Assembly: GCA_965261735.1 (NCBI GenBank) | Contig: OZ253470.1 | Coordinates: 1,536,001 to 1,600,000 of the forward strand | Origin: Alphaproteobacteria bacterium | GTDB lineage: Bacteria > Pseudomonadota > Alphaproteobacteria > SHVV01 | Direction: 5' to 3' | DNA length: 64,000 bases | Shown here: piece by piece, positions 3,118 through 63,791 of the stretch | How the letters are laid out: every line of letters starts with the position of its first letter | How positions within the stretch are numbered: the first letter of the stretch is position 1 | Position numbers and translations under genes: made by a program | Notes under the pieces: model-generated | Databases searched by the model: none | What the model was told of the DNA's origin: nothing | What the model saw: only the letters and a program-made list of their open reading frames with translations

Positions 3118-3217
3118 CCCCCTCCCCCTACCCCTCCCACCAGGGGAGGGGCAAATTACGGCGCGATGTCCAGCTCTTAGCCCTCCCCCTTGATGGGGGA
3201 GGGTTGGGTGGGGGTGA
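3118..3217. repeat. REP/REPIN-like inverted pair, copy 2
   Basis: Closely similar to 1081-1180, including the spacer AAATTA(T/C)GGCGCGATGTC. Confidence 0.75.
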
Positions 3218-6588: not shown

Positions 6589-6600
6589 GGCAGGCGCTAG

Positions 6601-7973
6601 CAGGCTGCTGAAAAAGTCATCATTGCCGGGCCTTGAACTCGGATTCATCGCCGAAATGAAATGAGATTTCGTGTCTTAGGGTGAAACCGTCTTCAATCTC
6701 GACCGATCCGATGCCCTGGGCTTCGTCCAGTTCGATGATCTACCACTTTGCGGTCAGCGGCGTGCCGGCATCGCCCGTCATGTTGGCGCCTCCGCCAGCA
6801 GTCTGGGTAGTCGGACGAGGTTGTAGGCGGCCAAGGCCAGGGTGAACGAAGCGTCGACCCGGTGGCGGCCCCGGAATTTGGTCTTGCTCAATCCCGCGCT
6901 CGTCTTGACCCAGCCGAAGACCTCCTCGATGCGCTTGCGGCAACGTTGGCTGACGCCGTAACCGGGATGGCGCGTCGTGCGCCCGTCTATCTTGGTCTTG
7001 CGCCGCTTGCCGGTCTTGGTGACGTGGTCCTGGACGGCGATATGGGGGGTCACCTTGCGGTGCCGCAGTTCCTCGACAAAATCCGCGACGTCAAAACCCT
7101 TGTCCCCGCCCACCGTGATCCGACGCCGCCCGCCTCTACTCTCCACCGGGCGATGCCTGTCGATCAGATCAAGGGCGGCTTCGCGTTCCGCCGTGCCCGA
7201 CGCAATGGTCACGCCGCCGCCGACTGCCAGACCATGGCGGTTCTCCGTCAGCGCATGGCCCATGTAACACAGCTTGCTTTCCCGGCCATTACCCTTGCGA
7301 TAAAGCCGGGCGTCCGGATCAGTGGTGCTTGCATGGGTCGCGTTCGAGCGTTTCTCGCCATGAAAATCCCGCGCGGCGTTGCGCCCCGATCCCCCGTCGC
7401 CATCGTCCTCACCTTTGGGACGAAAGCTCTTCATCGACGCCCAGGCCTCGATCAATGTTCCGTCTACCGAAAAATGATCCCGGCTCAATAGTCCCCCTAC
7501 CTTGTGGTGCTGGATAACCCCCGCAAGCAGCTGCCCCGAAACCTCCGCCTCCAGAAGACGGTCCCGGTTGTGGCAGAACGCGCTGGCGTCCCACACGCCA
7601 TCGTCCAGCCCAAGCCCCACAAACCAGCAAAACAGCATGTTGAAGTTTAGCTGCTCCATCAGCTGACGCTCCGAGCGGATCGAATAAAACGCCTGCAACA
7701 GTAACGCTCGAAGAAGCTTCTCCGGCGGGATCGATGGGCGACCCATGTGGGAATAAAGCGTCTCGAACTCCGAAGATAGAGACCCCAATACGTCGTTCAC
7801 GATCTCACGGATCAGACGCAGCGGATGATCATCCGGAACACGCTCTTCCAAGTCTACGTAGCTGAATAAATTGCCACTGCTTTGATCTCGACCCCGCATG
7901 CCATCCTCCATCACTCGAAGAAATCACAGAATCATGTCACAACTGCAAAGGCGAGGACTTTTTCAGCAGCCTG
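6601..7973 (-). mobile_element. IS5 family element, copy 1
   Basis: 18-bp perfect IRs CAGGCTGCTGAAAAAGTC / GACTTTTTCAGCAGCCTG; CTAG duplicated at 6597-6600 and 7974-7977. Confidence 0.95.
6778..7914 (-). CDS. IS5 family DDE transposase
   Basis: GRPSIPPEKLLRALLLQ, SVDGTLI, GDKGFD, RKRIEEVFGW. Confidence 0.93.
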   Translation of the reverse strand: MMEDGMRGRDQSSGNLFSYVDLEERVPDDHPLRLIREIVNDVLGSLSSEFETLYSHMGRPSIPPEKLLRALLLQAFYSIRSERQLMEQLNFNMLFCWFVGLGLDDGVWDASAFCHNRDRLLEAEVSGQLLAGVIQHHKVGGLLSRDHFSVDGTLIEAWASMKSFRPKGEDDGDGGSGRNAARDFHGEKRSNATHASTTDPDARLYRKGNGRESKLCYMGHALTENRHGLAVGGGVTIASGTAEREAALDLIDRHRPVESRGGRRRITVGGDKGFDVADFVEELRHRKVTPHIAVQDHVTKTGKRRKTKIDGRTTRHPGYGVSQRCRKRIEEVFGWVKTSAGLSKTKFRGRHRVDASFTLALAAYNLVRLPRLLAEAPT

Positions 7974-8524
7974 CTAGTGCGCTATTTTCGTATGTGAGCG
8001 AGCGCCTCGGCCGGGACCAGGTTCAGGCTTCCCGCGGCATCGCCCGGGCGCAACCAGAAGAGCTTGAGCGTCGAGGTGTTGCGCTTCTCGTAGTACAGGA
8101 TCGAGATCGGATACCAGCCGGCCTCGGCGATCGCGACCTCGACGGTGTCGGAATACTGGTCCGAGTGGACGAGAGGATCGTTGATTACCCGTTTGCCGCC
8201 GATGTTGACGCGCACCCCGTCATTGGACAGAGCCGCGAACGCGTAGGTGCCGGGCTCTTCGAAACGGATGAGGCCGCGGATGTCGGCACCGACGCCGTCG
8301 GTCTGGCTGCTCGACAGCACCTCGCCGGCACCGACCTTGTAATCGAGCACCGGCAACGGCCTTCCGACCTCGCCCTTCTCGTATTTCGCCCACTGCGAAA
8401 TCTCGTCCACATCGTTGAAGATCGAGTAGTAGTAGGTAACCGATGGGGTGGACGCCCCTCCCGACGGCATCGCGATGTGCCAGGTTGGCGGTGTTGTTAA
8501 CGCCAAGCGAGGAAGGGGGCGTCC

Positions 8525-23261: not shown

Positions 23262-23279
23262 TCCGGCGAAGCTCGCGCT

Positions 23280-23431
23280 CCCCCCCCTCCCTACCCTCCC
23301 CCACAAGGGGGAGGGGGGTGTGCGCGGTGTCGCGTCTCGCCTAGCTCTTCTCTCGTTGGCGGAAGAAGCCCCGCGAGATCAAAGCCGTAGCCCCCCTCCA
23401 CCTTGATGGGGGAGGGATGGGGAGGGGGTGA
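23280..23431. repeat. REP/REPIN-like inverted pair, copy 3
   Basis: CCCTCCCCCACAAGGGGGAGGG ... CCCTCCACCTTGATGGGGGAGGGATGGGGAGGGGGTG. Confidence 0.72.
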
Positions 23432-31320: not shown

Positions 31321-31603
31321 TTAGGCAACCTCTTCCGTGACAACACTCTCCTCGACGTACGCTTTGAACTCCCCCTGAACGCCCTCAACGGTCTTTCCAA
31401 ATTTAGGGCCGAGCATGAGTTTCTCGATCAATGCGCCGACGGGCCAGTATCGGGTCTGCATGTCGATAAAGGTGGTGGCGCTGGTTCGGTTGGTGCCCAG
31501 ACTTTCGAGCCGCCATCCTCCACTTGCTTCTTTGACAAAAGCCGGTAGTCCTTCGAGTGACAATCTGAAGCTTTCGTTCTCCTTCCACTCGAGAACATTC
31601 TCC
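31321..31603 (-). pseudogene. SRPBCC-like protein, C-terminal half, truncated by IS1595
   Basis: ENVLEWKENESFRLSLEGLPAFVKEASGGWRLE...FKAYVE; frame is open up to the IS end. Confidence 0.55.
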
Positions 31604-32708
31604 CTTTCCTATCCGGTTTACACCCACACCCACTAGGGCTAGAATGGGCGCAACCCGGATATAGGGGAGCGCGCCATGGATGTTCTCGACCGCGCCGATC
31701 TCCCATTCCCGCATTCGCTACCCGAGTTCCAGCGACTTTTCCCCGATGATGCGGCCTGCGCCGCCTACCTGGAGAAAGCCCGCTGGGGAGACGGCTTTGC
31801 CTGCCCGCACTGCGGCACGGCGGGAGAGCCGTTCCACTTTGAAAACCGCCCTGGCGTCCTGCGCTGCCGCAAGTGCCGCCAGAACACCGGGCTGACGGTG
31901 GGAACAGTGATGGAGCGTAGCCACACTCCGCTGAACGTCTGGTTCTGGGCCGCTTATCTGGTCGCCAGTCAGACGCCCGGCATGTCCGCCGTGCAGTTTC
32001 AGCGGCAACTTGGTCTTTCGCGCTACGAGACGGCCTTTCAAATTCTCCACAAGCTCCGCTCGGGCATGGTGCGGCCCAACCAAGACAGGATCGGTGGACA
32101 GCCCAAGAACCATGTTGAGGTGGACGAAACCTGGGTTGGCGGGCGAACGCGTGGGGAAGGCCGTGGTGTTCACCACAAGGTTCCCGTCTCCTGTGCCATC
32201 GAGGTGCGTCATCGAAAGCCGGGCACCAAGCTCGACAACCGGAAAGACGGACGCTATGCCGGACGCGTTCGGCTCGCCGTCGTGCTCGACCGTAGCGCCG
32301 AGTCGCTCTGTGGGTTCGTCGAGAGCACCGTCGCGCCGCGATCGCTGATCGTTACTGACGATTGGAGCGGCTATGCTGGCCTCGGTAAGCGCGGCTATGA
32401 GCACTTCGCTGTTGCCGAGTGTGGTGATCCAGAGGTTGCCGAGCAATACCTGCCGATCATCCATCTGGTTTTCGCCAACCTGAAGACGTGGCTGATCGAT
32501 ATCCACCACGGCGTTAGCCACCAGCACCTACAAGCCTACCTCAACGAGTTCACCTTCCGCTTCAACAGGCGGTTCTACCCGTTCAACGCCTTCCGCTCAT
32601 TGCTCGGCATCGCGGGCGACACCTCTGCTCCAACCTATGCCGAGCTTTACTCGGGAGAGTGGCGGCACCCTACATGTAGCGGTCATGGGCGTTAACCGGA
32701 TAGGCAAG
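31604..32708 (+). mobile_element. IS1595 family element, copy 2, no target duplication
   Basis: 1105 bp; flanks CATTCTCC / CATCGATT differ. Confidence 0.92.
31676..32695 (+). CDS. IS1595 family transposase
   Basis: One substitution (G>D) relative to the other copies. Confidence 0.93.
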   Translation: MDVLDRADLPFPHSLPEFQRLFPDDAACAAYLEKARWGDGFACPHCGTAGEPFHFENRPGVLRCRKCRQNTGLTVGTVMERSHTPLNVWFWAAYLVASQTPGMSAVQFQRQLGLSRYETAFQILHKLRSGMVRPNQDRIGGQPKNHVEVDETWVGGRTRGEGRGVHHKVPVSCAIEVRHRKPGTKLDNRKDGRYAGRVRLAVVLDRSAESLCGFVESTVAPRSLIVTDDWSGYAGLGKRGYEHFAVAECGDPEVAEQYLPIIHLVFANLKTWLIDIHHGVSHQHLQAYLNEFTFRFNRRFYPFNAFRSLLGIAGDTSAPTYAELYSGEWRHPTCSGHGR

Positions 32709-32740
32709 CATCGATTTTATCGAGATTCGCGATGTCCTAG

Positions 32741-34113
32741 CAGGGTGCTGAAAAAGTCATCATTGCCGGGCCTTGAACTCGGATTCATCGCCGAAATGAA
32801 ATGAGATTTCGTGTCTTAGGGTGAAACCGTCTTCAATCTCGACCGATCCGATGCCCTGGGCTTCGTCCAGTTCGATGATCTGCCACTTTGCGGTCAGCGG
32901 CGTGCCGGTATCGCCCGTCATGTTGGCGCCTCCGCCAGCAGTCTGGGTAGTCGGACGAGGTTGTAGGCGGCCAAGGCCAGGGTGAACGAAGCGTCGACCC
33001 GGTGGCGGCCCCGGAATTTGGTCTTGCTCAATCCCGCGCTCGTCTTGACCCAGCCGAAGACCTCCTCGATGCGCTTGCGGCAACGTTGGCTGACGCCGTA
33101 ACCGGGATGGCGCGTCGTGCGCCCGTCTATCTTGGTCTTGCGCCGCTTGCCGGTCTTGGTGACGTGGTCCTGGACGGCGATATGGGGGGTCACCTTGCGG
33201 TGCCGCAGTTCCTCGACAAAATCCGCGACGTCAAAACCCTTGTCCCCGCCCACCGTGATCCGACGCCGCCCGCCTCTACTCTCCACCGGGCGATGCCTGT
33301 CGATCAGATCAAGGGCGGCTTCGCGTTCCGCCGTGCCCGACGCAATGGTCACGCCGCCGCCGACTGCCAGACCATGGCGGTTCTCCGTCAGCGCATGGCC
33401 CATGTAACACAGCTTGCTTTCCCGGCCATTACCCTTGCGATAAAGCCGGGCGTCCGGATCAGTGGTGCTTGCATGGGTCGCGTTCGAGCGTTTCTCGCCA
33501 TGAAAATCCCGCGCGGCGTTGCGCCCCGATCCCCCGTCGCCATCGTCCTCACCTTTGGGACGAAAGCTCTTCATCGACGCCCAGGCCTCGATCAATGTTC
33601 CGTCTACCGAAAAATGATCCCGGCTCAATAGTCCCCCTACCTTGTGGTGCTGGATAACCCCCGCAAGCAGCTGCCCCGAAACCTCCGCCTCCAGAAGACG
33701 GTCCCGGTTGTGGCAGAACGCGCTGGCGTCCCACACGCCATCGTCCAGCCCAAGCCCCACAAACCAGCAAAACAGCATGTTGAAGTTTAGCTGCTCCATC
33801 AGCTGACGCTCCGAGCGGATCGAATAAAACGCTTGCAACAGTAACGCTCGAAGAAGCTTCTCCGGCGGGATCGATGGGCGACCCATGTGGGAATAAAGCG
33901 TCTCGAACTCCGAAGATAGAGACCCCAATACGTCGTTCACGATCTCACGGATCAGACGCAGCGGATGATCATCCGGAACACGCTCTTCCAAGTCTACGTA
34001 GCTGAATAAATTGCCACTGCTTTGATCTCGACCCCGCATGCCATCCTCCATCACTCGAAGGAATCACAGAATCATGTCACAACTGCAAAGGCGAGGACTT
34101 TTTCAGCAGCCTG
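32741..34113 (-). mobile_element. IS5 family element, copy 2
   Basis: Near-identical to 6601-7973; CTAG on both sides. Confidence 0.95.
32918..34054 (-). CDS. IS5 family DDE transposase
   Basis: Same protein as 6778-7914. Confidence 0.93.
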   Translation of the reverse strand: MMEDGMRGRDQSSGNLFSYVDLEERVPDDHPLRLIREIVNDVLGSLSSEFETLYSHMGRPSIPPEKLLRALLLQAFYSIRSERQLMEQLNFNMLFCWFVGLGLDDGVWDASAFCHNRDRLLEAEVSGQLLAGVIQHHKVGGLLSRDHFSVDGTLIEAWASMKSFRPKGEDDGDGGSGRNAARDFHGEKRSNATHASTTDPDARLYRKGNGRESKLCYMGHALTENRHGLAVGGGVTIASGTAEREAALDLIDRHRPVESRGGRRRITVGGDKGFDVADFVEELRHRKVTPHIAVQDHVTKTGKRRKTKIDGRTTRHPGYGVSQRCRKRIEEVFGWVKTSAGLSKTKFRGRHRVDASFTLALAAYNLVRLPRLLAEAPT

Positions 34114-34263
34114 CTAGCCCAACCCTAAACCGGAACCGCGATGGCCTCCGCTGTGGATAGCCGGCTTGCCTACGCCAGACTCTCGGCGGTCGCTACGGCA
34201 AGCCGCCTACCCACAGCTAACAGAGGCTCCAACAACTCCTACACCACGTCCTGGGACACGACC
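34114..34263 (-). mobile_element. IS256 left-end remnant
   Basis: Identical to 61246-61395. Confidence 0.9.
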
Positions 34264-38800: not shown

Positions 38801-38834
38801 CGGAGCGACTGCTACGTCACTTCGAGGATCAGTC

Positions 38835-39939
38835 CTTGCCTATCCGGTTAACGCCCATGACCGCTACATGTAGGGTGCCGCCACTCTCCCGAGTAAAGCT
38901 CGGCATAGGTTGGAGCAGAGGTGTCGCCCGCGATGCCGAGCAATGAGCGGAAGGCGTTGAACGGGTAGAACCGCCTGTTGAAGCGGAAGGTGAACTCGTT
39001 GAGGTAGGCTTGTAGGTGCTGGTGGCTAACGCCGTGGTGGATACCGATCAGCCACGTCTTCAGGTTGGCGAAAACCAGATGGATGATCGGCAGGTATTGC
39101 TCGGCAACCTCTGGATCACCACACTCGGCAACAGCGAAGTGCTCATAGCCGCGCTTACCGAGGCCAGCATAGCCGCTCCAATCGTCAGTAACGATCAGCG
39201 ATCGCGGCGCGACGGTGCTCTCGACGAACCCACAGAGCGACTCGGCGCTACGGTCGAGCACGACGGCGAGCCGAACGCGTCCGGCATAGCGTCCGTCTTT
39301 CCGGTTGTCGAGCTTGGTGCCCGGCTTTCGATGACGCACCTCGATGGCACAGGAGACGGGAACCTTGTGGTGAACACCACGGCCTTCCCCACGCGTTCGC
39401 CCGCCAACCCAGGTTTCGTCCACCTCAACATGGTTCTTGGGCTGTCCACCGATCCTGTCTTGGTTGGGCCGCACCATGCCCGAGCGGAGCTTGTGGAGAA
39501 TTTGAAAGGCCGTCTCGTAGCGCGAAAGACCAAGTTGCCGCTGAAACTGCACGGCGGACATGCCGGGCGTCTGACTGGCGACCAGATAAGCGGCCCAGAA
39601 CCAGACGTTCAGCGGAGTGTGGCTACGCTCCATCACTGTTCCCACCGTCAGCCCGGTGTTCTGGCGGCACTTGCGGCAGCGCAGGACGCCAGGGCGGTTT
39701 TCAAAGTGGAACGGCTCTCCCGCCGTGCCGCAGTGCGGGCAGGCAAAGCCGTCTCCCCAGCGGGCTTTCTCCAGGTAGGCGGCGCAGGCCGCATCATCGG
39801 GGAAAAGTCGCTGGAACTCGGGTAGCGAATGCGGGAATGGGAGATCGGCGCGGTCGAGAACATCCATGGCGCGCTCCCCTATATCCGGGTTGCGCCCATT
39901 CTAGCCCTAGTGGGTGTGGGTGTAAACCGGATAGGCAAG
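38835..39939 (-). mobile_element. IS1595 family element, copy 3
   Basis: 1105 bp; perfect 8-bp DR GATCAGTC (38827-38834, 39940-39947). Confidence 0.95.
38848..39867 (-). CDS. IS1595 family transposase
   Basis: Same protein as 14357-15376. Confidence 0.93.
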   Translation of the reverse strand: MDVLDRADLPFPHSLPEFQRLFPDDAACAAYLEKARWGDGFACPHCGTAGEPFHFENRPGVLRCRKCRQNTGLTVGTVMERSHTPLNVWFWAAYLVASQTPGMSAVQFQRQLGLSRYETAFQILHKLRSGMVRPNQDRIGGQPKNHVEVDETWVGGRTRGEGRGVHHKVPVSCAIEVRHRKPGTKLDNRKDGRYAGRVRLAVVLDRSAESLCGFVESTVAPRSLIVTDDWSGYAGLGKRGYEHFAVAECGDPEVAEQYLPIIHLVFANLKTWLIGIHHGVSHQHLQAYLNEFTFRFNRRFYPFNAFRSLLGIAGDTSAPTYAELYSGEWRHPTCSGHGR

Positions 39940-41150
39940 GATCAGTCATTCAAGGCTAAGTTGCTGGGCACGGACCGGCTGCGGGAGATGGCAAATCCAG
40001 GGCAGCTCGGACGCTCGTATGGTGACCACTTCGCCGCTGGATACCCGAAGAGCAGCTTCGAGCACCTGCGCCAGGCGGGCGGGGAAGGATCGGGCGTCGA
40101 TACCTTTCTGTTGCTTGAAGACAGACTGGACCTCCGCATCCGCGTTGAAGCGACGCTGAGCCCTCTCTTCGACCGCGACGTAGTGCTGGACTGGGATTCC
40201 GGTAGCCTCGTGCCGAAGGCGGCGATGCGGAAAAGTGGAGAGTCTTATCGCCTAGATCGTGACGAGTGTCACGGCATTAAGGAGCTCTTGGTTCTTCTCA
40301 CGCACTTGTACGATGAGCGGCACGACTACCTGATCGTCGATGAGCCGGAACTCAATTTGCATCCGCAGTATCAAACGTTCTTCATGCAGGAGGTGCGCAA
40401 GGTTACCCAAAAGCAGGATGCGAGCGGAACCGCGAAAATCGTCTTCCTGATCACGCACTCGCCGTTCATACTGGTTTTGCGGTCGCACGATGACGTCAAG
40501 TCCGTGATATCGTTCGATCTCTAATATTCCGTCCCCAGGCAGGTTGTCCGTAGGAGCCCCGACGTGGCTTCGGAGTTGGTCGCGACCGGGCGACTGAACG
40601 CGCACCACAAACAGCTCTTCTTCTCGGACGATCCCATATTCGTGGAAGGGCACCACGACGCGCTGATGATCGAGTCTCTAATGGAGGCACGCGGCGTCTC
40701 GGCCGCAGCTGCCGGTAGCTGCATCATCGAATGTGGGGGCGTAGAGGAAGTAACCCACTACCTGAAGCTCTGGCAAGCGCTAGGGAAGAGGGCTCATTTC
40801 GTCTATGACCTTGACAGCCTCTTCAAAGGCCGACTTCGGTCGTGTATTGGCAATGACAACATCGATACCCTGACCGCTGAAGGCGACGAAAGGCGTAGCA
40901 ATGCTTGCCCTTCAGGTGGGCTGCTGGGCTGGTGACCTCCAACTATTGTAACTAGCCTTGACCTAACATTGCCTCCGAAATCCGGATCAGGTCGTTCTTC
41001 AGCTATGCGGCTTGACCGATGGTCATGTCCCGAATCTCACTGTCGGTGTGGTTCAGAGAAACTACCAATCTATGCTGCAGAAGTTGCATAGCTTTGCGTT
41101 GCTGACGCACCGGGATCCCGCGGTGCCAGCCTGTTGATAATGATCGCGTT

Positions 41151-59390: not shown

Positions 59391-59961
59391 GGGCGCACCG
59401 TAGTGTGGCGATGATGTAATTGCAAACCACACTTGCAATCAATGCGAAAAGCGCTCAGTTATGAGTGGCCTCTCTGCCACCGGCGTAATGGCGCTGGGCT
59501 CTACAGGGCAGGCCCAGAAATACCCAATCCGGGTTGTGAACAGCCGCTTGCAAATCTTCTTGAGAAGGCCGTTCGATGGTCAGTCCGTTCGTTACTGCCT
59601 TCGCAAAAAGCAGATCGAGCGCGACCCAGATCGTCATCTTGATCTGGCATTCATAACGCACGTTTCCGGTTCGCTCTTTGGAGGATACAGGAGCATCAAG
59701 GTTTGCAGCTGCTCGACCCGGTTTTTCCCTTTCGGTTTCCCTGCGCCTTCGTATTGCCTTTTTCCGTCACGGCCCGTCGCCTTCAGGATCATGCAGATGA
59801 ACGCGATTAGGCGTCCAAAGAGATAGTCGACCTGTTCGAGGAATCACAGGCCTTCCTGCGTGGTTTCGGAATGCCGGATACGAAAGCCGTTGCTGATCTT
59901 TAGAAAGCGCTGGGGACACCTTGAGTTTCAAGCTCTGGTGCGGCGTTGGATGACGGGTCAT

Positions 59962-61395
59962 GATCGTGTCCCGCGGAGTGGTGTAAGAGCGTTGCGCTCT
60001 ACGCGGCTCCCGGCGTGTAGGGCCGGGACGTTCAGGCTGCCACGGTGGGCAGCGTGATGGGGACACCATCGCTCAGCGGAGCGATGGATTCCAGCGTCAT
60101 GTATCTCCTTGAGACGGCCCACTCGTCGTTCTGCTCGAGAAGGATGGCGCCGACGAGCCGTGTGATGGCGGCTTCGTTGGGAAAGATACCGACGACGTTG
60201 GTGCGACGCTTGACCTCGGCATGGAGCCGTTCGATCGGGTTTGTGGAGTGCAATTTCTGGCGGTGCTCCCTGGGGAAGCTCATGTAGGCGAGGACGTCGT
60301 GCTCGGCTTCGTCCATGAGAACTGCCAGCTTGGGCACCTTGGGCCTGAGCTGGTCGGCGACCTGGCGCCACTGGACCTTCGCGCTGTCGGCGTCCTCCTG
60401 GGCGAAGGCGGAGACGACGCGCCGGCCCTGGCGGCCGGCATGGGCCAGCAGGTTGCGGGCGAAGTGCACGCGGCAGCGCTGCCATGTGGCGCCGAGGATC
60501 CGGGTCGCGGCGGCCTTCAGGCCCTTGTGGTCGTCGGAGATCACCAGCTTCACGCCGCGCAGCCCGCGCCGGGCCAGCGAGCGCAGGAACTCGGTCCAGA
60601 AGGTCTCGGCCTCCGACGCGCCGATCGCCACGCCCAGGACCTCGCGGCGGCCTTGGTCGTTGACGGCCACAGCCACGGTCACCGCGACCGAGACGATGCG
60701 TCCGATCTGGCGCACCTTCACGTAGGTGGCGTCGAGCCACAGATAGGGCCAGTCGCCCTCCAGCGGTCGATCGAGGAAGCCGGTGACCTTATCGTCGATC
60801 TCGCCGCACAGCCTGGAGACCTGGCTCTTGGAGGCGCCCGACATCCCCATCGCCTGAACCAGATCGTCGACCGAGCGGGTCGACACCCCCTGGATGTAGG
60901 CCTCCTGGATCACCGCAGCCAGCGCCTTCTCGGCCATCCGCCGCGGCTCCAGGAAGCCCGGGAAGTAGCTTCCCTTCCTCAACTTCGGGATCTTCAGCTC
61001 GACCGTGCCGGCCCGCGTCTCCCAGGACCGGTCGCGGTAGCCGTTGCGATGGGTGATACGATCCGCCGAGCGCTCGCCGTGCCCGGCGCCGGTCAGGCCC
61101 TCAACCTCCAGTGCCATCAGCCGCTCGGCCGTGAAGCCGATCATCTCGCAAAGCAGATCGGCATCGGAGCTCTTCTCCAAAAGCGCGCGCAGGGTCATCA
61201 TGTCCTGGGTCATCGTGGTTCTCCTTCGGGTCAGGTTGGTTTGCACTAGCCCAACCCTAAACCGGAACCGCGATGGCCTCCGCTGTGGATAGCCGGCTTG
61301 CCTACGCCAGACTCTCGGCGGTCGCTACGGCAAGCCGCCTACCCACAGCTAACAGAGGCTCCAACAACTCCTACACCACGTCCTGGGACACGACC
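59962..61395 (-). mobile_element. IS256 family element
   Basis: Imperfect IRs GATCGTGTCCCGCGGAGTGGTGTA / TACACCACGTCCTGGGACACGACC; 8-bp DR CGGGTCAT (59954-59961, 61396-61403). Confidence 0.95.
60032..61213 (-). CDS. IS256 family transposase, probably with a 5-codon internal deletion
   Basis: [28 protein letters not shown]; start taken at MTQD (61213) after GAAGGAG. Confidence 0.9.
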
Positions 61396-61916
61396 CGGGT
61401 CATTATAATGAAGAACTTGAAGACCTCTGCCTTGTTACGCGACGTTGGTGAAATCATCTGGATTTGAAAATGCCGCTCAATGACGGCTGTTCTAGTTGCC
61501 CGGGTTGGGCCATTGCCCATGAAACCGGCGTGAGAGGGTGTAAATTTCTCCACACGCGCGGCGGCTCTGCAGCTGGAGCTTTTGTTGTTCAGCCGCCCGC
61601 TTGATTCGATGCACATATGCATCGTAGCCGCGCGCCGATTGCGGCGCGCCTGGGGATGGAGATTCTCGAATGCGTCGAGATCCTCGCGCCCGATGCCGCT
61701 GTGTTCGGGGAGCAGAGAGGCGAAGTCGCCCGGCCTGGTGCGGAAAGTATCGGCCTGTTTCAACAGCACAGTGTGGTCCTGAACGACGGCTATCGCGATT
61801 TCGTCGCCAGCACGATCAGGCCGGACTAGCTAGATACGCATGCTCCAATGCCGGCCCTTGCTCTGCTGCTGCCTTTCAGCCTTGTGCTCGGCGCGCTGTT
61901 GCCGCAACTCCCGGAG

Positions 61917-62100
61917 CTACGGAATTTCGCTATCAACCACCGTCGCGGCGGTTTCGGCGGCAGGCACGGTCTTGCCGTTTATCGCCGGCGCGCCGTTGCC
62001 GTTCGGCTTGTCCAAGAATTGGACCCGGCCGCCGGGGACCAGAAGGATCTCGGTCGAGAACCGGTCGCTGTCCTCGCCGTCCTTGCGCCACTTGCGGGTC
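61917..62100 (-). pseudogene. ssb: Single-stranded DNA-binding protein, C-terminal fragment
   Basis: TRKWRKDGEDSDRFSTEI...VQFLD...DSEIP. Confidence 0.65.
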
Positions 62101-62546
62101 CTTGCGCGGTGGGATGACGGCCGTGGTTCCGCGTTCTGCCAGCCAGTCGCGCAGGGCTTTGCTGTCATAGCCCTTGTCGGCGACGAGTTCGGCGGCGGGC
62201 GGCATGGCTTCGATACAGCGTTGGGCGACCTTGGAATCATGGACGTTTCCTGGTGTCAAGAGCAGGACGAGGGGCCTGCCTTTCGCATCGCAGACAGCGT
62301 GGAGCTTGGTGTTGCGGCCCCCCTTGGTGCGGCCGATGCCATGGGCCAAGGCCCCCCTTTTCCGCCGCCGGCGCAGCGATGAACCTTGATGCAGGTTGAA
62401 TCGATGAACAGCCGGTCGGGGGCGTCTTCGCCGCCCGCCAGCGCGCTGAATATCCGTTCCCAGATGCCGCGCGTATCCGTCGGCAAAAGCGGCCCAATCC
62501 GAGCCCATTGCGCATCCGAAAACCAAAAGAAATCCGACATTTCCAT
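62101..62546 (-). mobile_element. IS5 family (IS427-like) transposase remnant
   Basis: FSDAQWARIGPLLP, IDSTCIKVHR, slippery GGAAAAGGGGGG, GRTKGGRNTKLH, ADKGYDS; internal and 3' deletions. Confidence 0.8.
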
Positions 62547-62993
62547 CGCCTCCGGGAGCCAAGGTTCTCACGCCGCGAGTCGACGCCCTGAGCAGTTCAG
62601 CCGTTCACCACCTCAATTCGTCCGGGCCAGCACGGGTTGTCGGAGTTGTCGGAACGGTTGTAAAGGTTCGGTCGGGCCGGTATAGGGCGCGAAGGCGTCG
62701 TGGAATCGGATCCAGCGGGCGATCGGGATCTCCTGGAGGAGTGTCTCCGTTTAACGGATATTCCGATTTTGACACCGGTGTCAATTGCGACTGAAAATTT
62801 CCCACTTTTGTCGATCGAAAATTTCTCACTTTGAGCGTTCGGTCGTACCCCCAGACGCGGTGTTTGGGGTGTCGGACTTGGTCGAGCTGTAGGTAACCGG
62901 GTTGGCGCAGCGACCGCCAAGAGTCTGGCGGCGACAACCCGGTTATCCACAGCGGGCGGGTGTCACCGCTCCTGTCTCCGTTTGAGCCGGCGA

Positions 62994-63791
62994 TCACGCG
63001 GCGGCTCTTTTCCTGCGTCGATCCGAGCCGGACTGCAGCAGGTTCTGATGCTCCTTCATCCGGTAGCTGTTGCCCCGGATGTTGACGATGTGGCAGTGGT
63101 GCACAAGGCGGTCGATGAGAGCCGCCGCCATGACCTCGTCGCCGAGCACGCCACCCCAGTCCTCGAAACCCTTGTTCGACGTCAGCACAGTCGACGCCCT
63201 CTCGTGCCGGGCGTTGATGAGCTGGAAGAAGAGCACGGCGCCGTCCTGGTTGACCGGCAGGTAGCCGATCTCGTCGACCACCAGCAGGGCCGGATGGGTG
63301 AGCACGCGCAGCCGCCGGGTCAGATTGCCGGCGGCCTTGGCCTCGGTGAGGGACTCGATCAGCGCCGCGAGCGTGCCGTAGTAGACGCGCCGGCCGGCCT
63401 CGGCCGCCGCGATCGCGAGGCTGATCGCCAAGTGCGTTTTCCCGACGCCTGGTGGGCCGAGCAGGATCACGTTCTCGCCGCGGTCCAGGAAGCCGAGCTC
63501 GTGCAAGCTCTCGATCTGCTCGCGCTTGATGCTGGGCTGGAAGGCGAAGTCGAACTGATCGAGCGTCTTCACAGCCGGCAGCCGCGAAGAGCGCATGGCG
63601 GTCTGGAGACGGCGGTTGTTGCGCAGCACGATCTGGGCGTTCAGCAACTGCTCGATGGCCTCGGCCGCCGAGATCGTGCCGCCGTCGGCGTCCGAGAGGA
63701 TGCCGTCGACGGCCTCCAGCGCGCCCGGCATCTTGAGGTCCGCCAGCATTGCCCGCAGCCGGTCGCGCCGGGCCGGCGCCGGAGCGTTCAT
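62994..63791 (-). CDS. istB: IS21 helper ATPase IstB
   Basis: KTLDQFDF, GPPGVGKTHLA, VDEIGY, TSNKGF, DRLVHH, GNSYR. Confidence 0.95.
   Translation of the reverse strand: MNAPAPARRDRLRAMLADLKMPGALEAVDGILSDADGGTISAAEAIEQLLNAQIVLRNNRRLQTAMRSSRLPAVKTLDQFDFAFQPSIKREQIESLHELGFLDRGENVILLGPPGVGKTHLAISLAIAAAEAGRRVYYGTLAALIESLTEAKAAGNLTRRLRVLTHPALLVVDEIGYLPVNQDGAVLFFQLINARHERASTVLTSNKGFEDWGGVLGDEVMAAALIDRLVHHCHIVNIRGNSYRMKEHQNLLQSGSDRRRKRAAA

Follow-up and report, generated by a model that had tools for sequence, protein, structure and literature searches.

A hairpin shared by two unrelated insertion sequences

We analysed a stretch of 64,000 nucleotides (nt) from an Alphaproteobacteria bacterium (GenBank assembly GCA_965261735.1, contig OZ253470.1, forward-strand positions 1,536,001 to 1,600,000), hereafter the window, whose coordinates are used throughout. 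Two insertion sequences (ISs) of different families, IS256 and IS21, carry the same kind of hairpin near one end, and comparison with other copies leaves little doubt, in our view, that this is a conserved, IS-borne and portable module of ~70 nt. It consists of a stem of 12-25 base pairs (bp), free in sequence as long as it pairs, that presents a nearly invariant loop.

The IS256-family element is assigned by its imperfect terminal repeats, its 8-bp target duplication and its transposase open reading frame (ORF; 60032-61246, PF00872, E 1.3e-116), and its hairpin lies between the transposase start and the IS end. The IS21-family element, whose istA runs off the window, is assigned from IstB and its right end, the terminus at 62779 (terminal TGTCAA) having been placed by comparison with other copies. 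We refer to the hairpin strand that starts CGCTGTGG as the hp strand, and to the form found in both elements as alpha (Table 1).

Table 1 Hairpins and host elements in the window
Feature	Position	Strand	Details
IS256-family element, 1434 bp	59962..61395	-	8-bp duplication CGGGTCAT at 59954-59961 and 61396-61403
Alpha-type hairpin, IS256-family element	61281..61350	+	Outward-reading (hp strand); outer stem GCTGTGGATAGCCGGCTTGCC / GGCAAGCCGCCTACCCACAGC; ends 45 nt from IS end
Invariant 21-nt core GCCAGACTCTCGGCGGTCGCT	61306..61326	+	Inner 4-bp hairpin CGCC/GGCG, then unpaired GTCGCT
DnaA-box-like 9-mer, one mismatch	61284..61292	-	CTATCCACA on minus strand (TGTGGATAG as read), in outer stem
Identical alpha hairpin	34149..34218	+	Inside 150-bp solo IS256 end remnant, 34114-34263
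istB of IS21-family element	62994..63791	-	PF01695, E 9.7e-81; stop codon 62994-62996
Alpha-type hairpin, IS21-family element	62885..62954	-	Between istB stop and right end; outward-reading; ~105 nt from terminus
21-nt core, IS21 copy	62909..62929	-	GCCAGACTCTTGGCGGTCGCT on minus strand; GAGTC at 62921-62925 on plus strand
Perfect DnaA-box 9-mer TTATCCACA	62943..62951	+	In outer stem of IS21 hairpin
IS21 right terminus	62779..62840	-	TGTCAATT... read inward on plus strand; two repeated subterminal motifs

The IS256 hairpin (61281-61350, plus strand) and the reverse complement of 62885-62954 are identical at 58 of 70 positions without a gap, which reproduces the likeness reported in a first-pass annotation of the window, and a repeat search returned the pair as 71-nt arms that are 83% complementary. 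Folded as DNA, both copies form the long stem described there: the hp strand at -23.4 and -24.0 kcal/mol (z -4.1 and -4.7 against dinucleotide shuffles) and the opposite strand at -28.6 and -26.6 kcal/mol (z -6.7 and -4.9), with at most 1 in 200 shuffles folding as well. The two covarying pairs (G-C to A-T and C-G to G-C), the A/C mismatch retained in both copies, and the perfect and one-mismatch DnaA boxes can be read directly in the sequence, as had been claimed. Within the IS256 copy, GACTC at 61310-61314 falls in the loop of the inner hairpin, and neither hairpin shows a visible duplication or other insertion scar at its borders. The IS contexts given earlier for these two loci stand, whilst that of the third copy does not: the block 61246-61395 recurs at 34114-34263 with 100% identity, as a solo end remnant rather than a whole IS256.

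Several observations concern the surroundings of these copies. An IS5-type element (DUF772 and DDE_Tnp_1; ends GAGGACTTTTTCAGCAGCCTGCTAG) is present at 32726-34118 and 6594-7980; the former copy is inserted at CTAG in the IS256 end, leaving the 150-bp remnant, and its other side has no IS256 continuation. The IS21 right terminus (...CAATTGACA, minus strand) is followed by 4 bp, CCGG at 62775-62778, and then by an apparent IS21 left terminus (TGTCAAAATCGGAATATCC...), making 62740-62790 an abutted junction of right and left inverted repeats, as in a tandem IS21 or an integrated circle junction, with the terminal TTGACA positioned like a -35. A small second conserved hairpin of the ACCCC..N..GGGGT type (62845-62875), found also in the IS21 relatives L134, L139 and L140, separates the main hairpin from the subterminal repeats at the IS21 right end.

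A variable stem presents an invariant loop in several IS families

An exact-pattern scan with GCCAGACTCTNGGCGGTCGCT in one genome per species returned at least 99 stretches, mostly from alphaproteobacterial metagenome-assembled genomes; 80 loci were fetched, yielding 50 distinct hairpins, of which 36 distinct sequences were aligned. Across this alignment 90.8% of cells pair; sliding the 3' partners lowers the figure to 30-46%. Of the 21 outer pairs, 18 are changed on both sides, and none of 500 shuffles reached the covariation score. The stem covariation proposed from the window pair is thereby borne out. Flanking stems are wholly different between lineages and keep their complementarity. The loop is built of the 4-bp inner hairpin CGCC-AGACTCTY-GGCG followed by unpaired GTCGCT and does not vary in the 36 sequences, a constancy due in part to the use of the core as query. 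Variant cores, found among IstB and IS256 relatives, retain GGTCGC(T) and usually GANTC.

That GANTC, the CcrM methylation site of Alphaproteobacteria, stands in the loop at 61310-61314 and 62921-62925, and is kept as GAGTC in L139 despite two neighbouring changes. L158 and L395 have lost it, and the beta loop described below, itself mostly found outside Alphaproteobacteria, does not contain it.

Carriers were classified by tblastn with the window transposase and IstB, by Pfam searches on neighbouring ORFs, and by comparison of copies for IS borders. The alpha hairpin occurs at the left end of IS256-family elements, upstream of the transposase and reading away from it (37 loci); at the right end of IS21, downstream of and co-directional with istB (8 loci, among them those of the L047 type, an IstB-41% lineage whose stem is unrelated); at the left end of another IS21 type, upstream of a small Cys-rich ORF and istA (L045 and L066, the two compared); and in IS3, in frame within the C-terminal coding part of orfB (two loci, L041 and L087). 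With IS256, three IS21 lineages and IS3 all carrying the core, the view of a discrete module common to otherwise unrelated families is upheld. No transposase was found by tblastn at 30 of the 80 alpha loci, nor at 49 of 80 beta loci, many of which are contig ends or remnants; those alpha loci that we read were contig ends or solo end remnants with IS256 or IS21 end sequence.

Transposases of the IS4/IS5, IS1595, IS66, IS110, ISL3 and PF21804 types were considered as carriers and rejected, since at the loci whose sequence was compared (L044, L052, L257, L320) the hairpin lies in an adjacent IS256 or IS21 end remnant; at other such neighbours (L055, L061, L109, L270) the flank alone was read. 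A coding role was likewise set aside: the core reads ARL(L/S)AVA in IS3 orfB and in a 64-amino-acid IS256 ORF, is out of frame with istB, and the agreement was judged to be chance. This ORF (61273-61467, plus strand) begins at an ATG in GCGATGGCC that is conserved among IS256 relatives, and extends outward over the hairpin and the inverted repeat as far as the flanking DNA, reading the core as ARLSAVA in the same frame as the IS3 orfB copies.

A sister loop occupies the same slot across phyla

In IS21, IS256, IS3 and IS481-like elements from many phyla, the slot can be filled by a sister loop, TCCGGTCGCTCCGCTCCCT, that also contains GGTCGCT. We term the form TCCGGTCGCTCCGCTCCCTCC beta; GGTCGCT(N)CG is common to the alpha and beta loops. 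Among IstB relatives of 82-99% identity (79 loci, 47 distinct downstream regions), a hairpin follows istB by 8-40 nt in ~42 of the 47 regions, with the alpha loop in alphaproteobacterial copies and the beta loop in Thermoanaerobaculia, Binatia, Vicinamibacterales, Bryobacterales, Chloroflexota and others, on stems that are unrelated and compensating. An exact scan with the beta 19-mer gave at least 124 stretches, and the phyla among the matches listed include Actinomycetota, Gemmatimonadota, Verrucomicrobiota and Planctomycetota.

From these, 80 loci were fetched. Carriers are IS21 with istB upstream and co-directional (29 of 80 loci), an IS256-family right end with the transposase upstream and co-directional (one locus, L300), an IS481-like left end (L261), IS3 right ends (L274 and L311) and IS21 end remnants (L257, L292 and L320). 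The 19-mer lacks a clear hairpin at ~19 of 36 beta loci checked. Within one IS21 lineage, L316 and L251 share the same stem and the 21-nt loop is inverted in L316, the single flipped loop among 31 beta loci with a transposase or IstB match.

Two beta hairpins have other neighbours. At L276 (1560-2070) the hairpin, one of several there, precedes by ~240 nt an anti-restriction gene of the ardC type that neighbours parA; the region resembles a plasmid or an integrative and conjugative element, and single-strand DNA signals would be plausible in it. At L296 (~1850-2061) it precedes a group II intron by ~50 nt (Rfam RF02012, 122 bits, 1912-2061); GTGCG, ~50 nt past the hairpin motif, resembles an intron 5' end and the surrounding stretch is AT-rich, as if the hairpin were the intron's stem-loop target.

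All copies in the source genome lie inside ISs

The source genome is a single contig of 5.03 Mb. Allowing up to three mismatches, the core occurs in it 74 times, 61 times in IS256 and 13 times in IS21-type ends, and every occurrence has an IS256 inverted repeat or an IS21-type end directly downstream. Among the 13 IS21-type copies are two more IS21 variants, which differ in their ends. An nhmmer search of the genome gave the same 61 and 13 copies and nothing else notable, and a covariance model built from the 36 aligned sequences found the same 74 and none besides. Such a model had been proposed in the first-pass annotation; run also on 60 relatives, it matched only 3 of the 7 same-family genomes and one of the 53 remaining genomes of the class, a patchiness which indicates that the hairpin follows the ISs. 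The 61 IS256-family copies, with nearly always identical hairpins, and the 13 IS21-type ends also speak of a strong recent IS expansion.

It had been considered that the hairpin might be a general intergenic repetitive extragenic palindrome (REP) with no enrichment in ISs. It shares with REPs, bacterial interspersed mosaic elements (BIMEs) and REP-derived hairpins (REPINs) the form of a GC-rich imperfect palindrome of similar size in many copies per genome. REPs, however, are extragenic and IS-independent, and it is their stem rather than their loop that is conserved; here the copies sit inside ISs, the loop is fixed and the stem varies with compensation. With 74 of 74 genome copies inside ISs, a general intergenic REP or REPIN is ruled out.

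The window does contain a different GC-rich palindromic repeat, CCCTCCCCCTTGATGGGGGAGGGTTGGG..., at 1144-1177, 3181-3214, 23394-23427 and 23279-23315, which may be the true intergenic REP-like element of this genome. Several IS1595-type copies are also present (e.g. 31603-32715 and 38828-39940).

The hairpin is tied to the IS end and has moved between families

Whatever the direction of the neighbouring gene, the closest IS end lies 45-125 nt ahead of the hairpin when hp is read 5' to 3', with the flipped loop of L316 as the one exception among 78 classified placements, which are few and include related, non-independent copies. Two apparent exceptions, L057 and L106, are IS256 ends abutting other ISs. 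Since orientation follows the IS end whilst the hairpin is variously upstream of genes, downstream of genes or inside a reading frame, it appears tied to the end rather than to the gene. The argument for DNA-level logic, first drawn from the opposite orientations of the two window copies relative to transcription, is thus strengthened.

IS256 relatives, compared at 55-90% transposase identity with L371 left out, share a conserved block in the 5' untranslated region (5'-UTR; ...CGCGATGGCC) and an inverted repeat CTCCTACACCAC...GGGACACGACC. The slot between the two is filled by the alpha hairpin in some relatives, by a hairpin with a TCGCTAC-type loop in L374, L376 and L377, by an unrelated palindrome in L380, L385, L386 and L389, and by ~9-14 nt without a long hairpin in L381 and L391; IS256 copies on Azospirillum and Acidisoma plasmids bear diverged hairpin versions there. 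These varied contents, and the hairpin-free relatives, mark the hairpin as an accessory insert in a fixed slot. The Acidisoma copy (L033, 3085-3270, plasmid NZ_CP126997.1) lies beside an array of clustered regularly interspaced short palindromic repeats (CRISPR) with repeat GTCGCTCCTCGCGCGGGAGCGCGGATCGAAAC.

Outside the fixed core, 46 stem and junction columns can be compared across families. The hairpin of the left-end IS21 L045 agrees with that of the IS256 element L089 at 43 of 46 columns, closer than to any IS21-borne hairpin, and the window IS21 hairpin agrees with the IS256 hairpin L074 at 38 of 46, whereas IS21b and IS3 stems match the others at 19-21 of 46, the level of chance, with only the core in common. 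These figures suggest that IS256 and IS21 have exchanged the hairpin at least twice in recent times and that it was acquired earlier elsewhere; the exchange between families suggested in the first-pass annotation has thus happened more than once.

Such mobility raises the possibility of a selfish or neutral palindromic passenger, akin to the tiny IS parasite named in the first-pass annotation. It would be carried from IS to IS through recombination or template switching, its arms held complementary by templated correction, and would have no function for the IS. Dispensability (L381 and L391 have the same slot without the hairpin), the jumps between families at 43/46 and 38/46 stem identity, the loop that can flip within its stem (L316 against L251), mismatches without wobble preference, and the beta hairpins that have no transposase beside them but precede ardC (L276) or a group II intron (L296), would all suit a passenger. 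We nevertheless regard this as quite improbable: a 19-21-nt loop identical over several phyla and IS families implies strong purifying selection on the loop, the absence of any of the 74 genome copies outside ISs would be odd for a free mover, only one independent placement departs from the orientation toward the IS end, and the borders carry neither duplication nor insertion scar.

The DnaA box belongs to one stem lineage

The first-pass annotation noted a DnaA box in the stem and suggested that the module perhaps recruits DnaA, coupling transposition to replication; the invariant part, the loop with GGTCGCT and its neighbours, was not singled out. The box is indeed frequent. Of 36 alpha hairpins, 13 have a perfect TTATCCACA, 12 a box with one mismatch and 11 two or more mismatches, and the 25 of 36 with at most one mismatch compare with 0.08 of 36 expected from shuffles. 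All boxes, however, fall in the GTGGATAA stem lineage, whose outer stem is constant whilst the inner stem covaries. With 3-4 mismatches, the box is absent from IS3, IS21b and two IS256 stem types (L046/L055/L092 and L065); it is degraded in several IS21 copies (TGAGGATAA, TATGGATAA, TGTGGGTTG) and in Azospirillum, and absent from the Acidisoma IS256 relatives. None was noticed by eye in the beta stems displayed, no dedicated box scan of beta stems having been made.

The idea that the module exists to recruit DnaA draws on this excess over expectation and on the constancy of the box-bearing outer stem in its lineage; a DnaA box is, moreover, known in the IS50 outside end. DnaA also acts on such hairpins in the ABC primosome, as described in an extract of PMC6127211. 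Against it stand the alpha stem types and relatives without an intact box, the beta stems read by eye, and the descent of all 25 boxes from one lineage, which makes them non-independent. Restricted in this way, the box does not define the module, and we consider recruitment through the box very improbable as the module's reason for being. From its distribution, the box is a feature of one lineage, where it is possibly functional.

DNA or RNA

Non-Watson-Crick cells on the hp strand of the alpha stems comprise 46 A.C, 11 G.T and 34 others, with 21 of the A.C cells in a single column; the 397 cells of the beta stems include 11 A.C, 6 G.T and 19 other mismatches. Wobble pairs are not enriched over other mismatches, a pattern no less suited to a DNA palindrome than to an RNA. 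Of the 50 alpha sequences folded, 45 are more stable as the inward-reading complement of hp, a weak lean toward that strand.

Signals of transcription were sought in the window. Neither strand has a T-run after the hairpin and a terminator scan gave no entry for it, which rules out an intrinsic (Rho-independent) terminator. A promoter scan placed none on the hairpins, its sole promoter-like site having the first hexamer outside the IS21 terminus. Rfam 15 gave no window match at gathering score, and E-value scans of 6 alpha and 18 beta loci returned, over a hairpin, only a sub-threshold mir-15 match. The IS256 element is present in 14 RNA-library runs, and the contigs of four were compared; they stop at the IS borders as assembly graphs do, carry no strand, end or level information, and are uninformative on transcription of the hairpin.

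These observations bear on control at the RNA level, under which the hairpin would function within RNA, whether read in across the neighbouring IS end or initiated there. In IS256, IS481 and left-end IS21 it could form a stem-loop at the 5' terminus of the transposase mRNA; at right ends it could block impinging transcription or mark a site where such transcripts are processed; or it could belong to an outward antisense or 3'-UTR RNA and use its conserved loop to pair with a target or to bind a host RNA-binding protein. A conserved loop on a variable stem is typical of antisense and protein-binding RNAs; the diverse hairpins of the IS256 slot suggest pressure for some hairpin at the mRNA start; the inward strand folds better in 45/50, with mismatches mostly G.U-compatible (hp A.C 46 against G.T 11); and an inward transcript would obey the orientation rule. 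IS200 offers a precedent, with a terminator, a 5'-UTR stem-loop and an antisense small RNA (extract of PMC4513863). We still find RNA-level control somewhat unlikely, though almost as probable as the copy-out reading put forward below. Terminator features are lacking, as is any Rfam family match; the better-folding strand is antisense to the genes in IS21 and IS3 and no promoter was found for it; the A.C excess comes mostly from one column (21/46) and is weak in beta (11 against 6), non-wobble mismatches being as frequent as wobble; and the same loop would be required in three or four unrelated transposase mRNAs.

Discussion

IS3 and IS21 elements use copy-out/paste-in transposition, and IS481 is close to IS3. 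In an extract of PMC7780238, the same route is given for the IS256 family and for a majority of bacterial IS families, and the figure-eight intermediate is said to be turned into a circle by host replication, whose recruitment is described as not understood. In view of this, the reading that we tentatively put forward is that the hairpin may be a single-strand DNA signal in copy-out replication. Once the figure-eight has formed, host replication would start at the flank 3'-OH at the recipient end and displace the IS strand whose 5' end is the recipient terminus. If the hairpin-bearing end were the recipient, the displaced strand would carry the complement of hp, the better-folding strand in alpha, and the folded hairpin could serve on it as a loading or priming site for host replication proteins such as helicase or primase. 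In the TTATCCACA-bearing lineage, loading might proceed as at the A-site hairpin of the ABC primosome, a single-stranded structure whose lone DnaA box enables DnaA to load DnaB-DnaC for priming (extract of PMC6127211); in other lineages the hairpin would act via whatever host factor reads the invariant loop.

Several points weigh against a copy-out signal. The model assumes that the hairpin-proximal end is the recipient, and the extract of PMC7780238 has either end of IS256 able to attack the other. Because most IS families use copy-out/paste-in, it says little that the carriers are such families. To our knowledge the invariant loop matches no known replication-protein site, and the DnaA box, missing in 11/36 alpha hairpins, cannot be the general mechanism. 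An inward RNA from the IS end would satisfy the same orientation rule, and stem compensation in a DNA palindrome may arise by templated correction without functional selection. The placements are few and drawn from related copies; the hairpin-free IS256 relatives L381 and L391 mean that the module is dispensable; and the 60 exactly matching IS256 copies divide 37 to 23 between the replichores defined by GC skew, with no clear bias.

The wider form of the copy-out proposal is that this is a cross-phylum accessory module of copy-out/paste-in ISs (IS3, IS21, IS256 and IS481), acquired horizontally, whose GGTCGCT loop is read by a host replication or repair factor and so recruits the machinery that converts figure-eight to circle. 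We hold this to be unlikely as it stands.

Both hairpins within IS ends and single-strand DNA signals are established kinds of element, and the module resembles several of them in part. Single-strand initiation (ssi), single-strand origin (sso) and Frpo-type hairpins are likewise folded single-strand DNA with conserved unpaired motifs, and show strict strand and orientation dependence; the L276 beta hairpin lies near ardC and parA, and we know of no ssi- or sso-type signal described inside an IS. The DnaA box of the IS50/Tn5 outside end and the Dam sites of IS10/IS50 are also replication-linked host sites in an IS end, to which the GANTC of the alpha loop may be compared, but they are duplex sites within the terminal repeats rather than a hairpin 45-125 nt inside. 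For an attC site, an origin of transfer (oriT) or nick site, a sigma-54 promoter, a CsrA site and the ssoA CS-6 motif, the position of the conserved parts does not fit. As far as we know, the A site of the ABC primosome has no invariant loop, the part that is invariant in the IS hairpin.

That A site (R6K-derived; Masai and Arai), as presented in an extract of PMC6127211, is a single-stranded hairpin with one DnaA box in its stem, like the window hairpins that carry such a 9-mer; it differs in that the box is not family-wide here and the setting is an IS end instead of a plasmid origin. The left-end inverted repeats of IS200, described in an extract of PMC4513863 as hairpins a short way inside one IS end, with a part in protecting or tuning transposase expression, are matched by the equivalent placement of the module in IS256, IS481 and left-end IS21. 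The IS200 structures (terminator, 5'-UTR stem-loop and art200 antisense RNA) are family-specific, however, whereas the module's loop is common to unrelated families, and the module also occurs at right ends and inside an IS3 reading frame, with no T-run and no overlap with a ribosome-binding site.

A literature search, with subscription journals and ISfinder notes outside its reach, found no paper containing the core strings and, mostly at the level of titles and abstracts, turned up no description of the element in work on IS256, IS21 and IS3 stem-loops, on a DnaA box in ISs, on IS21 noncoding RNA or on primosomes with copy-out. We know of no precedent for one invariant-loop module traded by unrelated IS families across phyla.

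ISs are usually described as a transposase gene with family-specific ends; here, unrelated transposases are accompanied by one structured accessory part. A loop identical across several phyla implies that ISs exchange functional cis-modules and that some common host or element factor reads the loop. Even as an RNA regulator or a selfish palindrome, the hairpin would be an abundant conserved motif, with at least 99 exact matches to the alpha core and at least 124 to beta, absent from Rfam and the searchable literature. It also provides a concrete candidate signal for the copy-out step: were that role true, it would be the first known cis-acting signal for turning the figure-eight into a circle, and the first known case of unrelated IS families trading a functional part.

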